Positions 21,092-30,394 of a stretch of DNA of 64,000 bases are shown here, in pieces. The notes under the pieces are model-generated. The model saw only the letters and a list, made by a program, of their open reading frames with translations. It was not told the DNA's origin and did no database searches. This DNA comes from Mycobacteriales bacterium (lineage in GTDB: Bacteria > Actinomycetota > Actinomycetes > JAFAQI01), in assembly GCA_035504215.1 (NCBI GenBank), contig DATJSI010000085.1:5984-69983 (forward strand), written 5' to 3'. A program made the position numbers and the translations under genes. Within the stretch, counting starts at the first letter, position 1. Each line of letters opens with the position of its first letter.

Positions 21092-21616
21092 GTGATCACC
21101 GCTGTGGACGCCGACGACGAAGCCGCGCTACGCGAGCTGTACGACGCGCATGCCGGCGCGCTGCTCGCGTACTCGCTGCGGCTCACGAACGGCGACCGGG
21201 GCCGGGCCGAGGACGTCGTACAGGAGACGATGCTGCGCGCCTGGCGGCATCGCGAGTCGCTCGACGAGAGTCGTGGCCCGGTGCGGCCGTGGCTGTTCAC
21301 CGTCGCGCACCACGTCGCGATCGACGCGCACCGCGCCCGATCCGCCCGGCCGAACGAGGTCGGCGACGCGGTCCTCGCGACCGTGCCGGCCGCGGATGAG
21401 ATCGACGTCCGCCTGGACCGGCTGCTGATCGCCGACGCCATGGCCGCGCTTTCACCCGAGCACCAGGCGGTGCTCGTCGAGACTTACTACCGCGGGCAGT
21501 CGGTCGCCGCGGCGGCAACCGCGCTCGGCGTCCCGCCGGGCACGGTGAAGTCGCGGACCTTCTACGCCCTGCGGGCGCTGAAGCTTGCGCTGGCCGAACG
21601 GGGGGTGACGACATGA
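21092..21616 (+). CDS. ECF (group 4) sigma-70 family RNA polymerase sigma factor
   Basis: 174 aa: ...LRELYDAHAGALLAYSLRLTNGDRGRAEDVVQETMLRAWRH...RPWLFTVAHHVAIDAHR... (regions 2 and 4). GAAAGG RBS. Confidence 0.9.
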   Translation: MITAVDADDEAALRELYDAHAGALLAYSLRLTNGDRGRAEDVVQETMLRAWRHRESLDESRGPVRPWLFTVAHHVAIDAHRARSARPNEVGDAVLATVPAADEIDVRLDRLLIADAMAALSPEHQAVLVETYYRGQSVAAAATALGVPPGTVKSRTFYALRALKLALAERGVTT

Positions 21617-22272
21617 CCTGCGAGGAGACCGTCGTGTCGCTCGGCGTCTATGTGGTCGGAGCGCTCGACCCGGCCGAGCGGGCAGAAGTCGACGCGCACC
21701 TCGAGCAGTGCGCGGCCTGCCGGGCCGAGCTGGCATCGCTCGCCGGGTTGCCGGAGTTGCTGGACCGGCTCTCGATCGAGGACTTCCCGCTCGAGTTGAT
21801 GGCGGCACCCGCCGACCTGTTCGACCGGGTCGCCGCGCGTGCGCGCGAAGAGGACGAGCAGCGGACCCGCCGTGGCCTGCTGAGCACGACGTACCGCCGG
21901 CTCACCGCGGTCGCGGCCGCCGCCGTACTGGTGGCCGGTGCGAGCGTGGGCGCGGTCGCTCTCGCCCATCACGACCAGCACCCGCGGTCGAGCTTCACGG
22001 CCACCCAGAGCGGGGTCACGATGCGGGTGACCTTGGCCTCGCAGGCGTCCGGGACCGGGCTGAACGTCACCGTGTCGGGGCTGCCCCGTGACGAGCACTG
22101 CCAGCTGATCGCGGTCGGGAAGGACGGCACCCGTGACGTCGCGGGTCGCTGGGACGCGACGTACTCGGGCTGGGCGCAGGAGACCGGCTCGACCCGGTTG
22201 CCGCGTTCCGAGCTCGCTCAGCTGATCCTGCTGGGCAACGGCGGGACCCGGCTGGCCACGGTCAACGTCTGA
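21613..22272 (+). CDS. zinc-binding (ZAS) anti-sigma factor, single-pass membrane protein
   Basis: ATGA overlap with the sigma gene. H-x3-C-x2-C motif HLEQCAACRAEL; central TM LTAVAAAAVLVAGASVGAVALA. Confidence 0.75.
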   Translation: MTCEETVVSLGVYVVGALDPAERAEVDAHLEQCAACRAELASLAGLPELLDRLSIEDFPLELMAAPADLFDRVAARAREEDEQRTRRGLLSTTYRRLTAVAAAAVLVAGASVGAVALAHHDQHPRSSFTATQSGVTMRVTLASQASGTGLNVTVSGLPRDEHCQLIAVGKDGTRDVAGRWDATYSGWAQETGSTRLPRSELAQLILLGNGGTRLATVNV

Positions 22273-22449
22273 CCCGGTGAGCAGGCGCCCGGGTTAGCCC
22301 GCTGGCGGTCGCCGATAGCCCGAATGGCCGAACGCCGGCCGGCGGGCGAATGCGCTGCAGGGACGGTTCGTACGGCGGGCGGCCGCGGGACGATCGAAGG
22401 ACCTGCCGCTCGACTCGGGGGGCGGCTGTTGCAGGAGCTAGCTACTTCG

Positions 22450-22827
22450 ATGAGTCCGTCCTATCAGCAGATCGATCTGGAGCCGACCGGCACCGCGCCG
22501 GGCGAGGCTCGCCGGGTCGTGCGCCAGATGCTGCTGCCGCTGGTGTCGGAGGACGTGACCGACACCGCTGAGCTGCTGGTCTCCGAGCTCGTGACGAACG
22601 CGATCACGCACGGTGCCGGGACGATCACGGTGTCGATCATTTGCGACGACGAGGAGTTGTCGGTCACGGTGAGCGACGACGAGCCCACCCAGCCGCTGCT
22701 TCAGCCCGAGCGGCTGATGGCGCTGGGCGGTCGCGGCATGCGGTTGGTCGAGTCCCTCGCCGGCGAGTGGGGGGTCAAGCCGCGGATCGGCAGCCCGGGC
22801 AAGGACGTGTGGTTCCGCCTGCCGTAG
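22450..22827 (+). CDS. ATP-binding protein, RsbW/SpoIIAB-like anti-sigma regulatory Ser kinase (HATPase_c_2)
   Basis: In-frame ATG at 22450 (GCAGGAG RBS) of track ORF 22324..22827: ...GEARRVVRQMLL...TAELLVSELVTNAITHGAGTITVSI...LSVTVSDD...GGRGMRLVESLAGEWGV...GKDVWFRL. Confidence 0.7.
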   Translation: MSPSYQQIDLEPTGTAPGEARRVVRQMLLPLVSEDVTDTAELLVSELVTNAITHGAGTITVSIICDDEELSVTVSDDEPTQPLLQPERLMALGGRGMRLVESLAGEWGVKPRIGSPGKDVWFRLP

Positions 22828-23077: not shown

Positions 23078-23093
23078 TCGAACGTATGTTCGA
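23078..23093. promoter_or_regulatory. LexA (SOS) box, perfect actinobacterial consensus TCGAAC-N4-GTTCGA
   Basis: TCGAACGTATGTTCGA read directly at 23078-23093. It lies upstream of or overlapping the imuA' start and 70 nt upstream of the divergent Cys-rich ORF. Confidence 0.8.
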
Positions 23094-23844
23094 GACTCGG
23101 GGTGTGATCGACGCCCTGACCCCACTCACCGAAATCGTCGGGGCAGACCGTTCGCGGGTCCCGGCACTTCGGGTCAGCCCGGCCCTGGCTCCGGTGCTGC
23201 CGGACGGGTTGCGGCGAGGGAGCACGATCGCGGTCAGTGGCTCGGTGTCACTGCTGCTGGCCACCGTGGGAGCGGCTTCCGCCGACGGGGCGTGGTGCGC
23301 GCTGGTGGCCATGCCGACGATCAGTGCCGAGGCCGCCCGTGGCTTCGGCATCGAGCTGGCCCGGCTGCCGATGGTGCCGAGCCCCGGTCCGGACTGGGTC
23401 GCGGTGGTGGGCGCGCTGCTCGACGCGGTCGACGTGGTGGTCGCGCGGGTGCCGGACCGGCTGACCGACGGTGACATCCGGCGACTGGCCGCCCGGGTCC
23501 GGGCCAAGGGCGCGGTCTTCGTTCCCTACCGGGCAGCGGCGCGTCCGGCCGGAGCACCGGTGTGGCCGCACGCCGAACTGTCACTACGGGCCGAGGCTGC
23601 GGACTGGGACGGGATCGGGACCGGGTACGGCCGGCTGCGGCGGCGCCGGGTGACGGTGTGCGCGGACGGTCGAGGTCGTCCGCGCTCGACCGGCCTGTGG
23701 TTGCCGGCCGCAACCGGCGGGACCGAGCCGGTCGTCGCTGCGGTTGTCGAGCCGGTTGTCGAGCCGGTGCCGTTCGCCGGCCCGCCGATCGTCGTGGCCG
23801 AGCCGCCGGTCGAACGCGGGTCGCGGCTCGTGGCGGTTCGCTGA
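23086..23844 (+). CDS. imuA': ImuA' (mutasome accessory protein, RecA-fold-like)
   Basis: Track ORF 23023..23844. Sequence ...LPDGLRRGSTIAVSGSVSLLLATVGAASADGAWCALVAMPTISAEAARGFGIELARL...VVVARVP..., and position directly upstream of imuB. The start is ambiguous: ATG 23086 inside the LexA box, or GTG 23104. Confidence 0.75.
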   Translation: MFETRGVIDALTPLTEIVGADRSRVPALRVSPALAPVLPDGLRRGSTIAVSGSVSLLLATVGAASADGAWCALVAMPTISAEAARGFGIELARLPMVPSPGPDWVAVVGALLDAVDVVVARVPDRLTDGDIRRLAARVRAKGAVFVPYRAAARPAGAPVWPHAELSLRAEAADWDGIGTGYGRLRRRRVTVCADGRGRPRSTGLWLPAATGGTEPVVAAVVEPVVEPVPFAGPPIVVAEPPVERGSRLVAVR

Positions 23845-23856
23845 AGTGGCGACACC

Positions 23857-25434
23857 ATGACCGGTACGCCGCCGCGCCTGGCCACCCTGTGGTGCCCGGA
23901 CTGGCCGGTGACCACGGCCCGGATGACCGGCGACGTTCCCGGCGACGCGGCGGTCGCGGTGGTCACGGCCAACCAGGTCCTCGCCTGCTCGGCGGTCGCC
24001 CGTGGATCCGGCGTACGACGGGGGATGCGCCGGCGTGAGGCCCAAGCCCGCTGCCCCGAGCTGGTAGTGGTCGCGCGCGACGAGCCGGCCGAGGCGCGCT
24101 GCTTCGAGCCGGTGATCGCCGCGGTGGAGGCGGTGGTGCCGGCGGTCGAGGTGATGCGGCCGGGCCTGGTCTCGGTCGGAGTCCGTGGGCCGATCCGGCG
24201 CTTCGCGGGCGAGCCGGAGCTGGTCGACTCGCTGTGGCAGGCAGTGGGCTGGCTGGCCGAGGACGATGCCCGGATCGGCATCGCGGACGGAGCGTTCGCG
24301 GCCGAGCAGGCCGCCCGGCGCGGGGTCATCGTGCCGGCCGGTGGGTCGGCGGAGTTCCTGGCCGATTTCCCGATCGCCACACTGAGCGCGTTCGGCAACG
24401 CCGAGCTGGTGGATCTGTTGCAACGGCTGGGGATTCACACCCTCGGTGAGTTCGCCACCCTGCCGGCGCGGGATGTCCTGATGCGGTTCGGGCCGGCCGG
24501 CGCGTGGGCGCACCGGCAGGCCGGCGGGCGGGACGACCGGCCGATCGTCGTGCGGGAGCCGCCGGCCGAGTGCACCGTGACGGTGGAGCTCGACACCCCG
24601 GTGGACCGGGTCGACGTGGTCGCGTTCAGCGCCCGCAGTGCGGCCGAGCGGTTCATCGCCGATCTCGGCGCCCGTGGCCTGTCATGTGCGTGCTTCGAGC
24701 TCGAGGCGTTCACCGACAACGGCGAGACGATGGCGCGGCGATGGCGGCATCCCGGCGTGCTCACCGCGCCCGACGTCGTCGACCGGATCCGCTGGCAGCT
24801 CGAGGGCTGGCTGCACGGTGGGACCGGCGCCGGTGGGCAGTGCCCGACCGCGGGGATCACCCGGCTGCGGTTCGTCCCGGTCGAGACCGTGCCGACCGGC
24901 GCCCATCAGCAGGCGCTGTGGGGCGGTCCGGGCGAGGCCGGCGAGCGTGCGCACCGGGCGCTCGCCCGGGTGCAGACCATGCTGGGGCTCGGCTCGGTGG
25001 TGGTGCCCTCGGTCGAGGGTGGGCGTGGCCCGATCGACCGGACCCGGCTGGTGCCGTGGGGCGAGGACCGCCCGCCCGACCGCGAGCCGGACCGGCCGTG
25101 GCCGGGACGGCTGCCGGCTCCCGCACCGTCGGTGCTGATCGACCCACCGGCGTCGGTCGCCGTACTCGACGAGGTGGGGCAGCCGGTGGTGGTCACCGAG
25201 CGCGGCGGGCTGGTCCGCCCGCCGGCGCGGATCGGTCTCGGCGGCCAGCCCGCAGTGGCCGTGACGTCCTGGGCCGGTCCGTGGCCGGTCGACGAGCGGT
25301 GGTGGGACCCCGAGCAGTCCAGCCGGGTGGCCCGGTTACAGCTGGTCGACGTTCGCGGCCGCGCCTACCTCGTCGCCGGCGAGATGCGCCGTACCGATCG
25401 TCCGGTCTGGACGCTGGAAGGCGTCTACGACTGA
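23857..25434 (+). CDS. imuB: ImuB (catalytically inactive Y-family polymerase-like mutasome subunit)
   Basis: 525 aa: MTGTPPRLATLWCPDWPVTTAR...AVVTANQVLACSAVARGSGVRRGMRRREAQARCPELVVV... This is a typical ImuB N-terminus; ATG at 23857. Confidence 0.85.
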   Translation: MTGTPPRLATLWCPDWPVTTARMTGDVPGDAAVAVVTANQVLACSAVARGSGVRRGMRRREAQARCPELVVVARDEPAEARCFEPVIAAVEAVVPAVEVMRPGLVSVGVRGPIRRFAGEPELVDSLWQAVGWLAEDDARIGIADGAFAAEQAARRGVIVPAGGSAEFLADFPIATLSAFGNAELVDLLQRLGIHTLGEFATLPARDVLMRFGPAGAWAHRQAGGRDDRPIVVREPPAECTVTVELDTPVDRVDVVAFSARSAAERFIADLGARGLSCACFELEAFTDNGETMARRWRHPGVLTAPDVVDRIRWQLEGWLHGGTGAGGQCPTAGITRLRFVPVETVPTGAHQQALWGGPGEAGERAHRALARVQTMLGLGSVVVPSVEGGRGPIDRTRLVPWGEDRPPDREPDRPWPGRLPAPAPSVLIDPPASVAVLDEVGQPVVVTERGGLVRPPARIGLGGQPAVAVTSWAGPWPVDERWWDPEQSSRVARLQLVDVRGRAYLVAGEMRRTDRPVWTLEGVYD

Positions 25435-25619
25435 GGTGCGCGGCGTCGCATCGAGTGATCGGCGAGACGAAGCGGACGACACCGTTCACGCATCCGCCAG
25501 AACGCCGACCTCGACCCGAGTTCAGCGAGTGCACGGAGGCCATGGTCGGGTAATGGACCGGGCTACCGCACCGGCTCCCTGTGGAAACGGCGAAGGGCTG
25601 TCTCTGGGCTGAGCTATAG

Positions 25620-25635
25620 TCGAACATGTGTTCGA
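25620..25635. promoter_or_regulatory. LexA (SOS) box, perfect consensus, preceded by TATAGT -10-like hexamer
   Basis: TCGAACATGTGTTCGA at 25620-25635. TATAGT at 25615-25620 overlaps the first base of the box. The GTG start of the DUF222 ORF (25628) lies inside the box. Confidence 0.8.
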
Positions 25636-26998
25636 ACTCGGGTTGGCGGGGCCGCCGGCGGATTGGGAACCGATCCCGGCCGAGGTCTGGGCCGAGCTGG
25701 GTCCGCCGTCCGCGGAGGGGTTGCCGGACGGGGTGAGTGCGGAGTGGGTGGACTCGTGTGACCGGCTGGTGGATCGGGCGGTGGCGGCGGGTCCGGGTCC
25801 GGCCTCGTTGGCATGGTTGACCGCGGTCCCGGCCGAGGTGCTTTCCGAGACCGCGCGCAGTGTGGCGTTGCGGGAGCTGACCGCGCTGGGCGGGTTCGTC
25901 GAGGCGGCACGGGCGGAGCTGACCGCGGTGATCGCCGGCCCGCTGCCAACGACGCAAGCGGAGGTGGATGAGCAGTCGTTCGCCGCCCACGAGGTTGCGG
26001 TCGCGACCACCAGCAGCGTGTATGCGGCGGATCGGCTGATCGGGTTGTCCCGGGACCTGGCGACGGTGTTGCGGGCTTCCCGGGAGGCGATGCGGGCGGG
26101 CCGTCTCACGCTTGCGCAGGCGCGGGTGTTGCACGACGCGACCTACCAGCTGCCGGCCGAGATTGCCCGCAAGGTGGAGGCCCGGGTGCTCCCGCGCGCG
26201 CACGGCCAGTCCACCGCCCGGTTCCGGGCAGGTGTGCGCCGGGCGGTCGCGGCGCTGGACCCTGCCTTCGCCGCCAGGGCGAAAGCGGCCCGGGCCGAGG
26301 TGCGGGTCTGTCATGAGCTCGGTGACGACGGGACCGGTGAGCTGTATGTGCGGGGCCCGTTGGAAATCACCACCGAGATCCACATGGCATTGACTGCCTA
26401 CGCCGCGAAAACCGCAGACACCCTCGGCGGGACCGCTGATCAGCGCAAGCTCGCCGGACTTCGCGACATGGCGGAGACCTACCTGGGCGAACCCGGCGTG
26501 CCGCGCCGGCACGGCCGGATTCCGACCGTGAACGTCGTGATCGAGCTGCCCACCCTGCTCGGGCTCAACGCGCACCCGGCCGAGATCCCCGGGATCGGGC
26601 CGCTACCCGCCGAGGCAGCGCTGTGGCTGCTCGCCGACGGCGCGCCGTTGCGCCGGCTGGTCACCGACCCGCTCACCGGGCACCTGCTCGACTACGGCAC
26701 CAGCACCTACACCGTGCCGCCCGCGCTCGCCGACCAGCTGATCGCCCGCTACATCCACTCCGCCGGTCCGCACAGCACGGTCGATGCGTCCCTGACCGAC
26801 ATGGAACACAACATCCCGCACGATGCCCGCGGCCCGACCGACCCGTGGAACAACACCCCGGTCGACCGGCGCTGGCACAACGCGAAAACCCACGGCGACT
26901 GGACGTATACGAAGGACGAGAACGGCGTCATCACCTGGACCAGTCCCACCGGACTCACCGTCCGCATCGAACCCCACGACTATCGGTTAGGGCCCTAG
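25628..26998 (+). CDS. DUF222 / HNH-endonuclease-like protein (REP13E12-type family), cysteine-less HNH region
   Basis: 456 aa with DUF222-like N-terminal and middle regions. C-terminus ...LTDMEHNIPHDARGPTDPWNNTPVDRRWHNAKTHGDWTYTKDENGVITWTSPTGLTVRIEP matches the family's D-x-D-H...N...H-x-x-K...W-T-S-P-T-G layout but contains no Cys. Confidence 0.8.
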   Translation: MFELGLAGPPADWEPIPAEVWAELGPPSAEGLPDGVSAEWVDSCDRLVDRAVAAGPGPASLAWLTAVPAEVLSETARSVALRELTALGGFVEAARAELTAVIAGPLPTTQAEVDEQSFAAHEVAVATTSSVYAADRLIGLSRDLATVLRASREAMRAGRLTLAQARVLHDATYQLPAEIARKVEARVLPRAHGQSTARFRAGVRRAVAALDPAFAARAKAARAEVRVCHELGDDGTGELYVRGPLEITTEIHMALTAYAAKTADTLGGTADQRKLAGLRDMAETYLGEPGVPRRHGRIPTVNVVIELPTLLGLNAHPAEIPGIGPLPAEAALWLLADGAPLRRLVTDPLTGHLLDYGTSTYTVPPALADQLIARYIHSAGPHSTVDASLTDMEHNIPHDARGPTDPWNNTPVDRRWHNAKTHGDWTYTKDENGVITWTSPTGLTVRIEPHDYRLGP

Positions 26999-27001
26999 GC
27001 A

Positions 27002-30000
27002 GTGGGCTGGGAAAACCCGCCGATGCCGTGGCGGGAGCTCGAGCGCAAGCTTTCCGGCCGACCGCCGCCGAAGGGAAAGTCGGGTAAGTCAGGGGAGCTG
27101 CACGGCGACGGCGGCGACTCGGTGGCTTGGTCACGGCACCGCCCGGCGTACGAACCGGTGCCGCTGGTGCGCCCCGACAAACCCGTGCCGTATGCCGAGC
27201 TGCACGCGCACTCCTCGTTCAGCCACCTCGACGGCGCGAGCCTGCCCGAAGAGCTGGTCGAAGAAGCCGTGCGGCTCGGGCTGTCCGGGCTGGCCGTGAC
27301 CGACCACAACGGGATGTACGGCGTGGTCCGCTTCGCCGAGGCCGCACAGAGCTTCGGTCTGGCGACCATCCATGGCGCCGAGCTCTCCTTGGACCTGCCG
27401 ATGCCACGGACGACCACGCAGCGGGCGGTCGGGGCTCGGTCGTCGATGGCCGATCCACCCGGCCGGCACCTGCTCGTGCTCGCCCGCGAACCGATCGGCT
27501 ACGCCCGGCTGTGCCGGGCAATCAGCGCGGCCCAGCGTCGTGGCGGGGCAAAGGGTCATCCGGTCTATGACCTCGACGAGCTCACCGAGCTCGCCGGCGG
27601 GCACTGGCTGGTGCTGACCGGTTGCCGCAAGGGGCCGGTGCGGGCCGCGCTGGAAGCGGGAGAGCCCGGCTGCCTCGCGGTCGATGCGGCGCGCGCCGCG
27701 TTAGCGGAGCTGGTCGAGCGGTTCGGTCGCGACAACGTCGTGGTCGAGCTCGGCTACGCCCGAGATCCCCTGGCCGACGAGCGCTACGACGTACTGGCCG
27801 AACTCGCCGCGGCCGAGCAGCTACCGATCGTCGCGACCACCGCGGCGCACTACCACGGTCCGGCGCGCCGCCCGCTCGCGACCGCAATGGCCGCGGTCCG
27901 CGCCCGGCGCAGCCTTGCCGAGCTCGACGGCTGGCTGCCCGCTTGGGCCGACCAGATGCTGCGGACCGGCGCCGAGATGGCCGAGCGGTTCGCGCGGTGG
28001 CCGGGCGCGGTCGAGATGGCGGCGCGGCTCGGTGCCGAGCTGGCCTTTCCGATCCAGCTGATCGCCCCGCAGCTACCGCCGTTCCCGGTGCCACCCGGAT
28101 ATGACGAGATGAGCTACCTGCGCGAGCTGACGATGCGCGGCGCGACCACGCGCTACGGCCCGCGTGGCCCGGACACCGAGAAGGCCTACGCCCAGATCGA
28201 GCACGAGCTGACGGTGATCGGGGAGCTGAACTTCCCCGGCTACTTCCTGGTCGTGTGGGACATCGTGCGGTTCGCGCGCGAGAACGGCATCCTCTGCCAG
28301 GGCAGGGGCTCGGCGGCCTGCTCCGCGGTCTGTTACGCGCTCGGGATCACCGCGGTCGACGCCGTCCGCTATGAGTTGCTGTTCGAGCGTTTCCTCGCCG
28401 CTGAGCGCGGCGAGCCGCCGGACATCGACGTCGACATCGAGTCCGGCCGGCGCGAGGAGGTCATCCAGTACGTCTACGACCTGCACGGCCGCGATCATGC
28501 CGCGCAGGTCGCCAACGTCATCACCTACCGGCCGCGCTCGGCTCTGCGCGACGTTGCGAAGGCGCTGGGCTACTCCACCGGGCAGCAGGACGCGTGGAGC
28601 AAGCTGATCGAGCACGGCTTTGACATGGCGGGGATCACCGCGCCGGACGACACCCCGGTGCCGGCGACGGTGCTCGAGCTGGCCGCGGAGCTGCGTGACG
28701 CACCGCGGCACCTGGGCATCCACTCCGGCGGCATGGTGATCTGCGACCGGCCGATCATCGAGGTCTGCCCGGTCGAGTGGGGCCGGATGCCGAACCGCAC
28801 CGTGCTGCAGTGGGACAAGGACGACTGCGCGGCGATCGGGTTGGTGAAGTTCGACCTGCTCGGCCTCGGCATGCTCTCCGCGCTGCGTTACTCCTTCGAG
28901 CTGATCGCGGACTGGCACGGTACGTCGTACGACCTCGCGTCCATCCCCAAAGAAGCACCGTGCGTCTACGACATGGTGTGCAAGGCCGACACGGTCGGGG
29001 TGTTCCAGATCGAGTCCCGGGCGCAGATGGCGACCTTGCCGCGGTTACGCCCGCGCTGCTTCTACGACCTGGTGATCGAGGTCGCGCTGATCCGGCCCGG
29101 GCCGATCCAGGGCGACTCGGTGCACCCCTATATCCGTCGCCGGCACGGCCAGGAAGCCGTGACCTACCCGCACCCCTCGCTCGAGGGTGCGCTCGGGCGC
29201 ACGCTCGGCATCCCGCTGTTCCAGGAGCAGCTCATGCAGGTCGCGGTCGCGGCCGCCGACTTCACCCCGGCCGAGGCCGACCAGCTGCGTCGCGCGATGG
29301 GGTCGAAGCGGTCGGACGCGCGGATCGACGCGTTGCGCCAGCGGTTGTACGACGGGATGGCCGCCAACGGCATCACCGGGATCGCCGCGGATGAGATCTT
29401 CGAGAAGATCCGTGCGTTCGCCTCCTTCGGTTTCGCGGAGAGCCACGCGATCTCCTTCGCGCTGCTGGTCTACGCCTCGTCCTGGCTGAAGCTGCACTAC
29501 CCGGCGGCGTTCTGCGCGGCGTTGCTCAACGCCCAGCCGATGGGCTTCTACTCGCCGCAGTCGCTGGTCGCCGACGCGCGCCGGCACGGGGTCGAGACCC
29601 GCAAGCCGGACATCAACATCTCGCGGGCGACCGCCACGCTGGAGGCCGGCGACGGCCGGTCGCAGTGTGCGTGTCTCGACGCGCCTCAGCCGGCGGTCCG
29701 GCTCGGACTGTCCAGCGTCCGGACGATCGGTGACGACCTGGCTGAGCGAATCGTTGCCGAGCGCGACGCAGCCGGGCCGTTCACCTCGATGGCCGACCTG
29801 GCCCATCGGATCGGCCTGTCGAGCGACCAGGTCGAGGCGCTCGCGACAGCGGGAGCGTTCGACGGCTTCGGGGTCGCGCGTCGCGATGCGCTGTGGACCG
29901 CCGGCGCGGCGGCTGCGGTACGCCCCGGTCAGTTCGACCTGGTCGCGGTCGACGAGACCGCCGTACCGGACCTTCCTGACATGACCGAGCCGGAACAGAT

Positions 30001-30394
30001 GATCGCCGACCTGTGGGCCACCGGCGTCACGACCGAGCAGTACCCCACCGCGCTGGTCCGCGACCGGCTGGACCGGATGGGGATCATCACCGCAGCCGGT
30101 CTGCGTGGGATCCCGGACCACACCCGGGTGCGGGTCGGGGGAGTGGTCACGCATCGCCAGCGGCCGGCCACTGCCCGCGGGGTGACCTTCGTCAACCTCG
30201 AGGACGAGACCGGGATGGTCAACGTCATCTGTTCGATGCAGGTCTGGGCAAAGTACCGAAAGGTCGCCCGTGGGAGTGCCGCGTTAGTGGTCCGCGGGAT
30301 GCTTCAGCACTCAGAAGGCGTGGTCAACGTCATGGCCGAGCGCATCGAGCCGCTCCAGCTCGGCGTCCGGCCCGCTGCTCGCAACTTCCGTTGA
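27002..30394 (+). CDS. dnaE2: error-prone DNA polymerase III alpha-like subunit DnaE2
   Basis: 1130 aa. The N-terminus MGWENPPMPWRELERKLSGRPP... resembles the mycobacterial DnaE2 N-terminus. PHP motif PYAELHAHSSFSHLDGAS. GTG at 27002 is 3 nt after the DUF222 stop. Confidence 0.95.
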   Translation: MGWENPPMPWRELERKLSGRPPPKGKSGKSGELHGDGGDSVAWSRHRPAYEPVPLVRPDKPVPYAELHAHSSFSHLDGASLPEELVEEAVRLGLSGLAVTDHNGMYGVVRFAEAAQSFGLATIHGAELSLDLPMPRTTTQRAVGARSSMADPPGRHLLVLAREPIGYARLCRAISAAQRRGGAKGHPVYDLDELTELAGGHWLVLTGCRKGPVRAALEAGEPGCLAVDAARAALAELVERFGRDNVVVELGYARDPLADERYDVLAELAAAEQLPIVATTAAHYHGPARRPLATAMAAVRARRSLAELDGWLPAWADQMLRTGAEMAERFARWPGAVEMAARLGAELAFPIQLIAPQLPPFPVPPGYDEMSYLRELTMRGATTRYGPRGPDTEKAYAQIEHELTVIGELNFPGYFLVVWDIVRFARENGILCQGRGSAACSAVCYALGITAVDAVRYELLFERFLAAERGEPPDIDVDIESGRREEVIQYVYDLHGRDHAAQVANVITYRPRSALRDVAKALGYSTGQQDAWSKLIEHGFDMAGITAPDDTPVPATVLELAAELRDAPRHLGIHSGGMVICDRPIIEVCPVEWGRMPNRTVLQWDKDDCAAIGLVKFDLLGLGMLSALRYSFELIADWHGTSYDLASIPKEAPCVYDMVCKADTVGVFQIESRAQMATLPRLRPRCFYDLVIEVALIRPGPIQGDSVHPYIRRRHGQEAVTYPHPSLEGALGRTLGIPLFQEQLMQVAVAAADFTPAEADQLRRAMGSKRSDARIDALRQRLYDGMAANGITGIAADEIFEKIRAFASFGFAESHAISFALLVYASSWLKLHYPAAFCAALLNAQPMGFYSPQSLVADARRHGVETRKPDINISRATATLEAGDGRSQCACLDAPQPAVRLGLSSVRTIGDDLAERIVAERDAAGPFTSMADLAHRIGLSSDQVEALATAGAFDGFGVARRDALWTAGAAAAVRPGQFDLVAVDETAVPDLPDMTEPEQMIADLWATGVTTEQYPTALVRDRLDRMGIITAAGLRGIPDHTRVRVGGVVTHRQRPATARGVTFVNLEDETGMVNVICSMQVWAKYRKVARGSAALVVRGMLQHSEGVVNVMAERIEPLQLGVRPAARNFR

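Follow-up and report, generated by a model that had tools for sequence, protein, structure and literature searches.

A DUF222/HNH-like gene with its own predicted SOS control between imuB and dnaE2: a probable lineage-specific insertion into a mutasome operon

In a 64,000-nt stretch of the Mycobacteriales bacterium contig DATJSI010000085.1 (the window, to whose full length all coordinates refer), a gene encoding a DUF222 protein with an HNH-like C-terminus is located inside the SOS mutasome operon, between imuB and dnaE2. Does this gene belong to the mutasome as a fourth component, as the initial annotation had proposed, or did it come to this place as a member of a family with a life of its own? 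Our analyses favor, with a probability of about 0.78, a lineage-specific insertion into the imuA'-imuB-dnaE2 operon of a self-regulated SOS cassette, which is a copy of a chromosomal multi-copy DUF222/HNH-like family. The features on which the argument is built are as follows.

23078-23093, + strand: LexA box TCGAACGTATGTTCGA at the imuA' promoter/start, overlapping the in-frame ATG at 23086 (MFET...)
23086-23844, + strand: imuA' (NCBIfam NF058630, ImuA', E 2e-44)
23857-25434, + strand: imuB (Pfam IMS), with the TGA stop at 25432-25434
25435-25597, no strand: spacer from the end of imuB to the conserved promoter unit, without similarity to any family or imuB locus
25598-25620, + strand: RecA-NDp-like promoter (cTGTCTctg, 8 nt, -10 element TATAGT), with spacing and core as in the family copies
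25620-25635, + strand: LexA box TCGAACATGTGTTCGA, a perfect 16-nt palindrome overlapping the GTG start at 25628
25628-26998, + strand: DUF222/HNH-like open reading frame (ORF) of 456 aa with a GTG start (Pfam PF02720; AlphaFold2 model with a mean predicted local distance difference test score, pLDDT, of 82.6)
26750-26902, + strand: Cys-less HNH-like beta-beta-alpha region, residues 375-425, placed by colinear alignment to canonical DUF222+HNH proteins
27002-30394, + strand: dnaE2 (NF004225 / NCBIfam "error-prone DNA polymerase", 1491 bits)

The imuB-dnaE2 junction and the places of the family

The gene order described in the initial annotation was confirmed at every boundary. The imuB gene is separated by 193 nt (25435-25627) from the DUF222 ORF, whose TAG stop (26996-26998) is followed by the three nucleotides GCA and then by the GTG of dnaE2 at 27002. 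More than 110 clusters of homologues show that the DUF222 ORF is a real gene on the + strand. The start of dnaE2 is also genuine, because of the 1491-bit match and because the N-terminus MGW(E/Q)NPPMPWRELER is kept from residue 1 in the related locus L027 and in other relatives; a start at about residue 60, where the NCBIfam model begins, was ruled out, as the N-terminal extension is conserved in many loci. No terminator-like site was found on the + strand in the spacer or between the DUF222 ORF and dnaE2, and together with the 3-nt gap this makes read-through into dnaE2 probable, as had been suggested from the sequence. The claim that dnaE2 has no promoter space of its own held for the 3-nt gap but is less general than it was worded: a promoter could also lie within the 3'-terminal part of the DUF222 ORF, although the sigma-70 scan detected no canonical promoter, and none within that part.

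The window contains bona fide imuA', imuB and dnaE2 genes and a LexA box heading the operon, as in the known imuA'-imuB/dnaE2 SOS cassette of Actinomycetota (Warner et al. 2010; Erill et al. 2006, as cited in PMC3381160). That cassette has three components, and a DUF222 homologue was present in none of 80 related metagenome loci anchored on imuB, whose ImuB proteins are 44-84% identical to that of the window. The dnaE2 gene was visible downstream in about 35 of these 80 loci and was directly adjacent to imuB in most of them. In L027, the closest informative relative (79% identity for both ImuB and DnaE2), the TGA of imuB is followed by a 42-nt spacer and the ATG of dnaE2, and the only LexA box is the one ahead of imuA'; by its sequence this junction is an empty site, which agrees with the view of the initial annotation that the DUF222 gene is inserted. 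The insertion is read as lineage-specific, and the operon as ancestral, because of this empty site and because none of the 80 imuB loci carries a DUF222 gene. In nine loci (L034, L039, L043, L044, L080, L091, L099, L100 and L101), 1-4 kb of unrelated genes, taken as ORFs without a family search, lie between imuB and dnaE2; seven of the nine have a separate LexA box for dnaE2, located 24-50 nt ahead of it.

The family was also followed from its own side. When 185,579 species-representative genomes were scanned for the family, 24 loci were obtained, and all of them belong to metagenome-assembled genomes (MAGs) of Frankiaceae/Mycobacteriales; seven MAGs hold two to three loci each, many loci are at contig ends, and the window holds a single copy. 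Neither imuA' nor imuB nor dnaE2 occurred within 8 kb in any of the 24, and none was nearby in five other contigs, which carry the closest homologues (67-76% identical), giving 0 of 29 family loci in total. In three of these five contigs the family gene is followed directly by an Aminotran_5 gene, and in two of the three dapB, an M16 peptidase gene, pnp and rpsO are visible alongside; in the remaining two contigs it is located beside a gene for a chorismate-binding enzyme and beside a DUF4389 gene, respectively. The closest relatives (67-78% identical) are thus found in at least three contexts other than that of the window: the Aminotran_5 slot by dapB/pnp/rpsO (L015, L025, L026 and L109), the chorismate-binding enzyme gene (L107) and the DUF4389 gene (L108). 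L015 and L107 are 86% identical and located in different places, and the same slots are occupied across diverged genomes. A tblastx clustering of flanks that joined the window to the Aminotran_5 group was ruled out, with only GC-rich chance matches behind it. The order imuB-DUF222-dnaE2 was therefore seen in none of 109 loci compared, the first of the two signs that the initial annotation had named for a simple repeat-family insertion (the second being near-identical copies elsewhere in the genome), and the absence of linkage on both sides argues against a fourth mutasome component.

Some side observations concern individual family loci. The L006 copy in the Aminotran_5 slot shares only about 50% identity with the window protein, and in a neighbor-joining tree it groups with paralogues of other slots and not with L015, L025, L026, L109 and L002. 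This position suggests slot re-occupation or gene conversion between paralogues, with weak bootstrap support; bootstraps in the tree range from 7 to 61%, a rooting artefact may be involved, and the tree is taken as indicative only, with pairwise identities relied on instead. A DDE (rve-type) insertion sequence lies about 36 nt upstream of the DUF222 start in four loci in two chromosomal slots: it is just upstream of the family gene in L006 (6502-7931), L005, L009 and L015, and in L013 it lies inside the 5' end of the gene. Its terminal inverted repeats of 46 nt are made of 25-26-nt GTCACCGAnGTCCTGA repeats. In L006 the promoter-motif 14-mer GTTGATCTTGTCGT is present on both sides of the element, which may prefer the RecA-NDp-like motif as a target.

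Directly upstream of imuA' in the window, at 21092-22827, are genes for an extracytoplasmic function (ECF) sigma factor, a zf-HC2 anti-sigma factor and an HATPase_c_2 protein. In L028, the closest relative, imuA' is likewise preceded by the HATPase_c_2 gene, and in L027 this gene is located about 7.7 kb upstream of imuA'; the ImuB proteins of L027 and L028 are 79-84% identical to that of the window. The longest ORF for imuA' runs from 23023, a start that is probably wrong; the candidates are the ATG at 23086 and the GTG at 23104, the latter located 3' of TTGACC-17 nt-GAGACT.

A predicted damage-responsive unit of fixed layout

The window protein matches Pfam DUF222 (PF02720) with 38.5 bits against a cut-off of 24.4, over residues 94-374 and profile positions 17-305 of 306. 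The N-terminal two-thirds of its AlphaFold2 model are helical, and the GC content at third codon positions of the ORF (0.88) is like that of the neighboring genes. A search of 5.8 billion proteins gave 163 matches. Among the best 120 of these, about 110 share 45-78% identity with the window protein. Soil metagenomes and MAGs with the label Mycobacteriales or Frankiaceae are the source of nearly all of the 120, and nearly all carry DUF222, with a Pfam HNH domain in one only, the canonical P0118. A profile search of 1.84 billion representatives found 24,509 representative clusters of the DUF222 superfamily at E<=1e-3, and a profile search of PDB sequences gave nothing meaningful for the window protein. 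Searches with tblastn came up empty for phages and gave a single weak, partial match for plasmids, so the family is not one carried by phages or plasmids. The ratio of nonsynonymous to synonymous substitution rates (dN/dS) of the window gene against close relatives is 0.2-0.4. The public gene call P0003 for this ORF seems to be N-terminally shortened, with 309 aa (68% coverage), and omits the GTG start coupled to the LexA box, which is backed by family conservation.

The LexA box at the DUF222 start, reported in the initial annotation, is perfect, overlaps the GTG and is invariant in all 17 full-length family copies whose 5' ends were aligned. The pattern GAAC-N4-GTTC occurs only twice in the 64 kb, at the DUF222 start and at the imuA' start, and the box over the in-frame ATG 23086 of imuA' has the same layout as in the DUF222 family copies. 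In most of the related loci a LexA box is also found in the equivalent position ahead of imuA'. The alignment further revealed a promoter, which was recognized because the family copies were compared and which the sigma-70 scan had missed. Its layout is TGTC(R) at -29 to -25, a fixed spacing, and TAnnnT at -13 to -8, and its spacing and core are of the RecA-NDp type in 15-17 of the 17 copies. The TCGAAC-N4-GTTCGA operator of the family shares the last T of the -10 element, and the start codon consists of the last two bases of the operator spacer and the G of GTTC; the N-terminal MF[DE] is conserved because the LexA box overlaps the start codon. The window copy has TGTC at 25599-25602 and TATAGT at 25615-25620, with T where the published RecA-NDp consensus, tTGTCRgtg-8nt-TAnnnT (PMC5656591), has R. 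Its start codon follows 7 nt after the -10 element, and the mRNA of the cassette is therefore probably leaderless. The RecA-NDp motif is the route by which PafBC activates damage genes (PMC6789036).

The family is a relative of the M. tuberculosis 13E12 family, present in Frankiaceae/Mycobacteriales lineages. The 13E12 genes (Rv0336, Rv0515, Rv1702c and Rv2100) likewise have a DUF222 N-terminus and an HNH-type C-terminus and several chromosomal copies. They are bound by LexA and carry RecA-NDp promoters (PMC3381160), as the initial annotation had correctly stated for LexA, and the window family has both motifs. Control of DUF222/13E12 genes by LexA and RecA-NDp is already known in M. tuberculosis; what the sequences add is that a distant lineage has the same regulatory logic, in an arrangement that is compact and does not vary. 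Unlike in M. tuberculosis 13E12, every copy has its LexA box over the start codon, and the window copy is inside the mutasome operon. The members of the window family are 50-78% identical, and in this they differ from the near-identical DNA repeat of ~1.4 kb with a phage attB site.

Comparisons between copies also gave the limits of the unit. At the DNA level the window copy resembles L015 and L025 within 25606-26999 only, and in all copies the downstream sequence diverges right after the stop codon. The conserved unit would thus consist of a RecA-NDp-type (PafBC-type) promoter, a LexA operator and the ORF, with homology ending at the stop codon. Such a unit would have ended up in the short spacer that separates imuB from dnaE2, oriented like these genes and with its last nucleotide 3 nt ahead of the dnaE2 start. 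Damage-induced transcription from the cassette promoter would read into dnaE2, possibly with added read-through from the imuA' promoter, and dnaE2 would stay in the SOS regulon. The insertion may have been tolerated because the cassette itself would supply LexA-repressed, damage-induced transcription into dnaE2.

An HNH-like region without zinc ligands

The landmarks D-x-E-H, N-N, W-H-N-A-K and W-T-S-P-T-G were all found in the window protein, which has only two cysteines, C44 and C228. The Cys-free stretch, first described as the last ~150 aa, in fact covers the last 228 aa. No Pfam HNH match was obtained for the whole protein, or for residues 360-456 at E<=10. The canonical proteins P0118 and P0120 do match PF01844, and the window protein aligns to them colinearly over about 90% of its length (35% identity, E 1e-50), including the part of P0118 that carries PF01844. 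In this alignment the canonical pattern C-x4-C ... C-D-L-D-H ... N-L-x-x-L-C-x-x-H-H-x-x-K corresponds to S378-x4-S383 ... T-D391-M-E-H394 ... N408-N-T-P-V-D413-R-R-W416-H417-N-A-K420 in the window protein. The former zinc-ligand columns C/C/C/H are therefore S378, S383, D413 and W416, and the catalytic His, structural Asn and metal-binding His expected of an H-N-H site align with the canonical residues as H394, N408 and H417. The alignment that the initial annotation had called for thus showed loss of the zinc ligands and retention of the catalytic residues.

This combination is shared by the family. Among 121 family sequences, which span 35-78% identity, the catalytic columns D391, H394, N408, H417 and K420 are conserved in 116-119 (H394, N408 and H417 in 119, 116 and 119, respectively). 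In 94 of the 121, S/S/(D or E)/W occupies the zinc-ligand columns, and C/C/C/H does so in only 2; S378, S383 and W416, which replace ligands, are conserved in turn. When the best 150 clusters of the search of 1.84 billion representatives were classed by these columns, roughly 40 were Cys-less variants and 99 were canonical CCCH; the Cys-less variants almost always have W at 416, and residue 413 is variable. Members of the Cys-less family keep a C-terminal motif, HDYRLGP, that neither P0118 nor P0120 has. By these sequence patterns, Cys loss is a property of the whole clade, and because the clade is found in unrelated contexts, the loss is not an adaptation to DnaE2.

Compared with canonical DUF222-HNH proteins (PF02720 + PF01844), the window family has the same D-x-[DE]-H ... 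N ... H-x-x-K pattern; some canonical proteins also begin with MF[DE], which implies the layout with the LexA box at the start. Unlike them, it gives no PF01844 match, and the C-x4-C ... C-x2-H zinc site of the McrA/13E12-type subgroup is replaced. The same contrast holds against M. tuberculosis 13E12, which has C/C/C/H where S/S/D/W is found here. The C-terminus of the AlphaFold2 model contains strands at 391-394 and 409-412 and a helix at 414-422, with pLDDT around 80-90, and this strand-strand-helix order is the beta-beta-alpha order expected of an HNH site. By its conservation, the window protein is probably a zinc-independent, active HNH-derived nuclease of the beta-beta-alpha-metal type, in which a Ser/Ser/Asp/Trp core would have replaced the structural zinc site. 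The variability at column 413 argues against a new set of metal ligands, and the conserved Trp suggests that the former zinc site is filled hydrophobically. A beta-beta-alpha-metal active site without a structural Cys4/Cys3His zinc finger is found in the DNase domain of colicin E9; the window protein has no detectable sequence similarity or significant Foldseek similarity to such zinc-finger-free HNH domains, which occur in a different domain context.

An alternative reading is that loss of the zinc finger inactivated the HNH site, and that the ORF is a degenerate, catalytically dead remnant kept only as the carrier of a promoter for dnaE2. The absence of a Pfam HNH match, the loss of every zinc-ligand cysteine and a dN/dS above the usual values of core enzymes would fit such a remnant. 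It is nevertheless very unlikely in view of the conserved catalytic and replacement residues, the predicted beta-beta-alpha topology at high pLDDT and the full-length ORF kept in at least 17 loci.

Arrival of the cassette and its meaning for the family

Several observations weigh against the insertion of a self-regulated cassette. The 163 nt that lead from imuB to the promoter unit (25435-25597) show no similarity to any family or imuB locus; in a blastn-short comparison of the 193-nt spacer with all loci the LexA box was the sole match, and an Rfam scan of 25200-27200 gave nothing. The sampling is thin, with one informative imuB-dnaE2 junction above 65% ImuB identity. The paralogues are 50-78% identical as proteins (66-78% as DNA) and none is near-identical, so recent transposition is unsupported; no terminal repeats or target-site duplications were found around the unit. 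We infer the co-transcription with dnaE2, the leaderless start and the damage induction from sequence. For the fold, Foldseek gave no match at E<=0.001 (whole model against PDB; C-terminal model against PDB and BFVD), with HNH domains appearing only among weak local matches (McrA and IscB, and phage HNH proteins with probability 0.9 over 36-52 residues), and the assignment as HNH is drawn from sequence homology and predicted topology.

The family may move by homing or gene conversion, or by rare illegitimate events, and two further readings bear on its movement. A possible, though doubtful, reading is that the cassette is a relocatable, self-contained damage-response module, which brings downstream co-directional genes into the damage regulon and here took over the SOS control of dnaE2. 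A gap of 7-44 nt to a downstream co-directional gene is common in the family copies (in the Aminotran_5, PIG-L-like and other slots). Within this reading there is a smaller possibility that the nuclease was co-opted locally and creates or processes substrates of the mutasome. Somewhat less probable is a selfish gene resembling a homing endonuclease, in which an HNH nuclease induced with RecA cuts its target and is copied into new sites by recombinational repair or gene conversion, with the copy between imuB and dnaE2 as one of its landings. The gene is free-standing and of the HNH type, has several copies per genome and sharp unit boundaries, and has close relatives in different contexts; the Aminotran_5 slot may hold distinct family lineages (L006 versus L015), as far as the weakly supported tree can tell, and the M. 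tuberculosis literature treats REP13E12 as insertion/repeat elements (PMC3381160, PMC10589994). However, no target-site signature or conserved flanks were found, copies are missing from phages and essentially from plasmids, and there are no recent near-identical duplicates. The same slots are kept across genomes diverged to 50-77% identity with the catalytic residues intact, which resembles stable residents more than repeated invasion followed by decay.

The fourth mutasome component, in which the Cys-less HNH-like protein would be co-translated with DnaE2 and work with ImuA', ImuB and DnaE2, for example in nick or lesion processing, has scarcely any likelihood left: the gene is intact and under purifying selection, on the same strand 3 nt from dnaE2 with a shared LexA-controlled transcript likely, and LexA-bound sites in M. 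tuberculosis include DUF222 and mutasome genes with several top-ranked chromatin immunoprecipitation sequencing (ChIP-seq) peaks (PMC3381160), but the linkage is missing from all imuB and family loci, the closest relative lacks the DUF222 gene at this site, and the window copy has the same promoter, termini, catalytic residues and replaced residues as members in unrelated contexts. Regular expressions for beta-clamp motifs found no match in the DUF222 protein, and none in ImuB, the positive control, either. From conserved gene order there is nothing to suggest a partnership dedicated to the mutasome, and a lineage-specific one is conceivable; by sequence, the link is most likely one of co-regulation and local co-transcription.

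Taken as the insertion of a self-regulated SOS cassette, the arrangement is a curiosity of this one mutasome operon and no indication that the mutasome has gained a part. It illustrates that an operon can absorb an insertion and stay regulated as before, since the inserted unit has the same regulatory logic. The link of DUF222/HNH genes to the DNA-damage regulon, through LexA and RecA-NDp, reaches well beyond Mycobacterium and is hard-wired into the first codons of the family. A sizeable subfamily keeps the HNH catalytic residues without the structural zinc site, so that the contribution of the zinc finger could be tested cleanly on it. Should the cassette indeed move and rewire downstream genes into the SOS response, this would be a new way for damage regulons to evolve.

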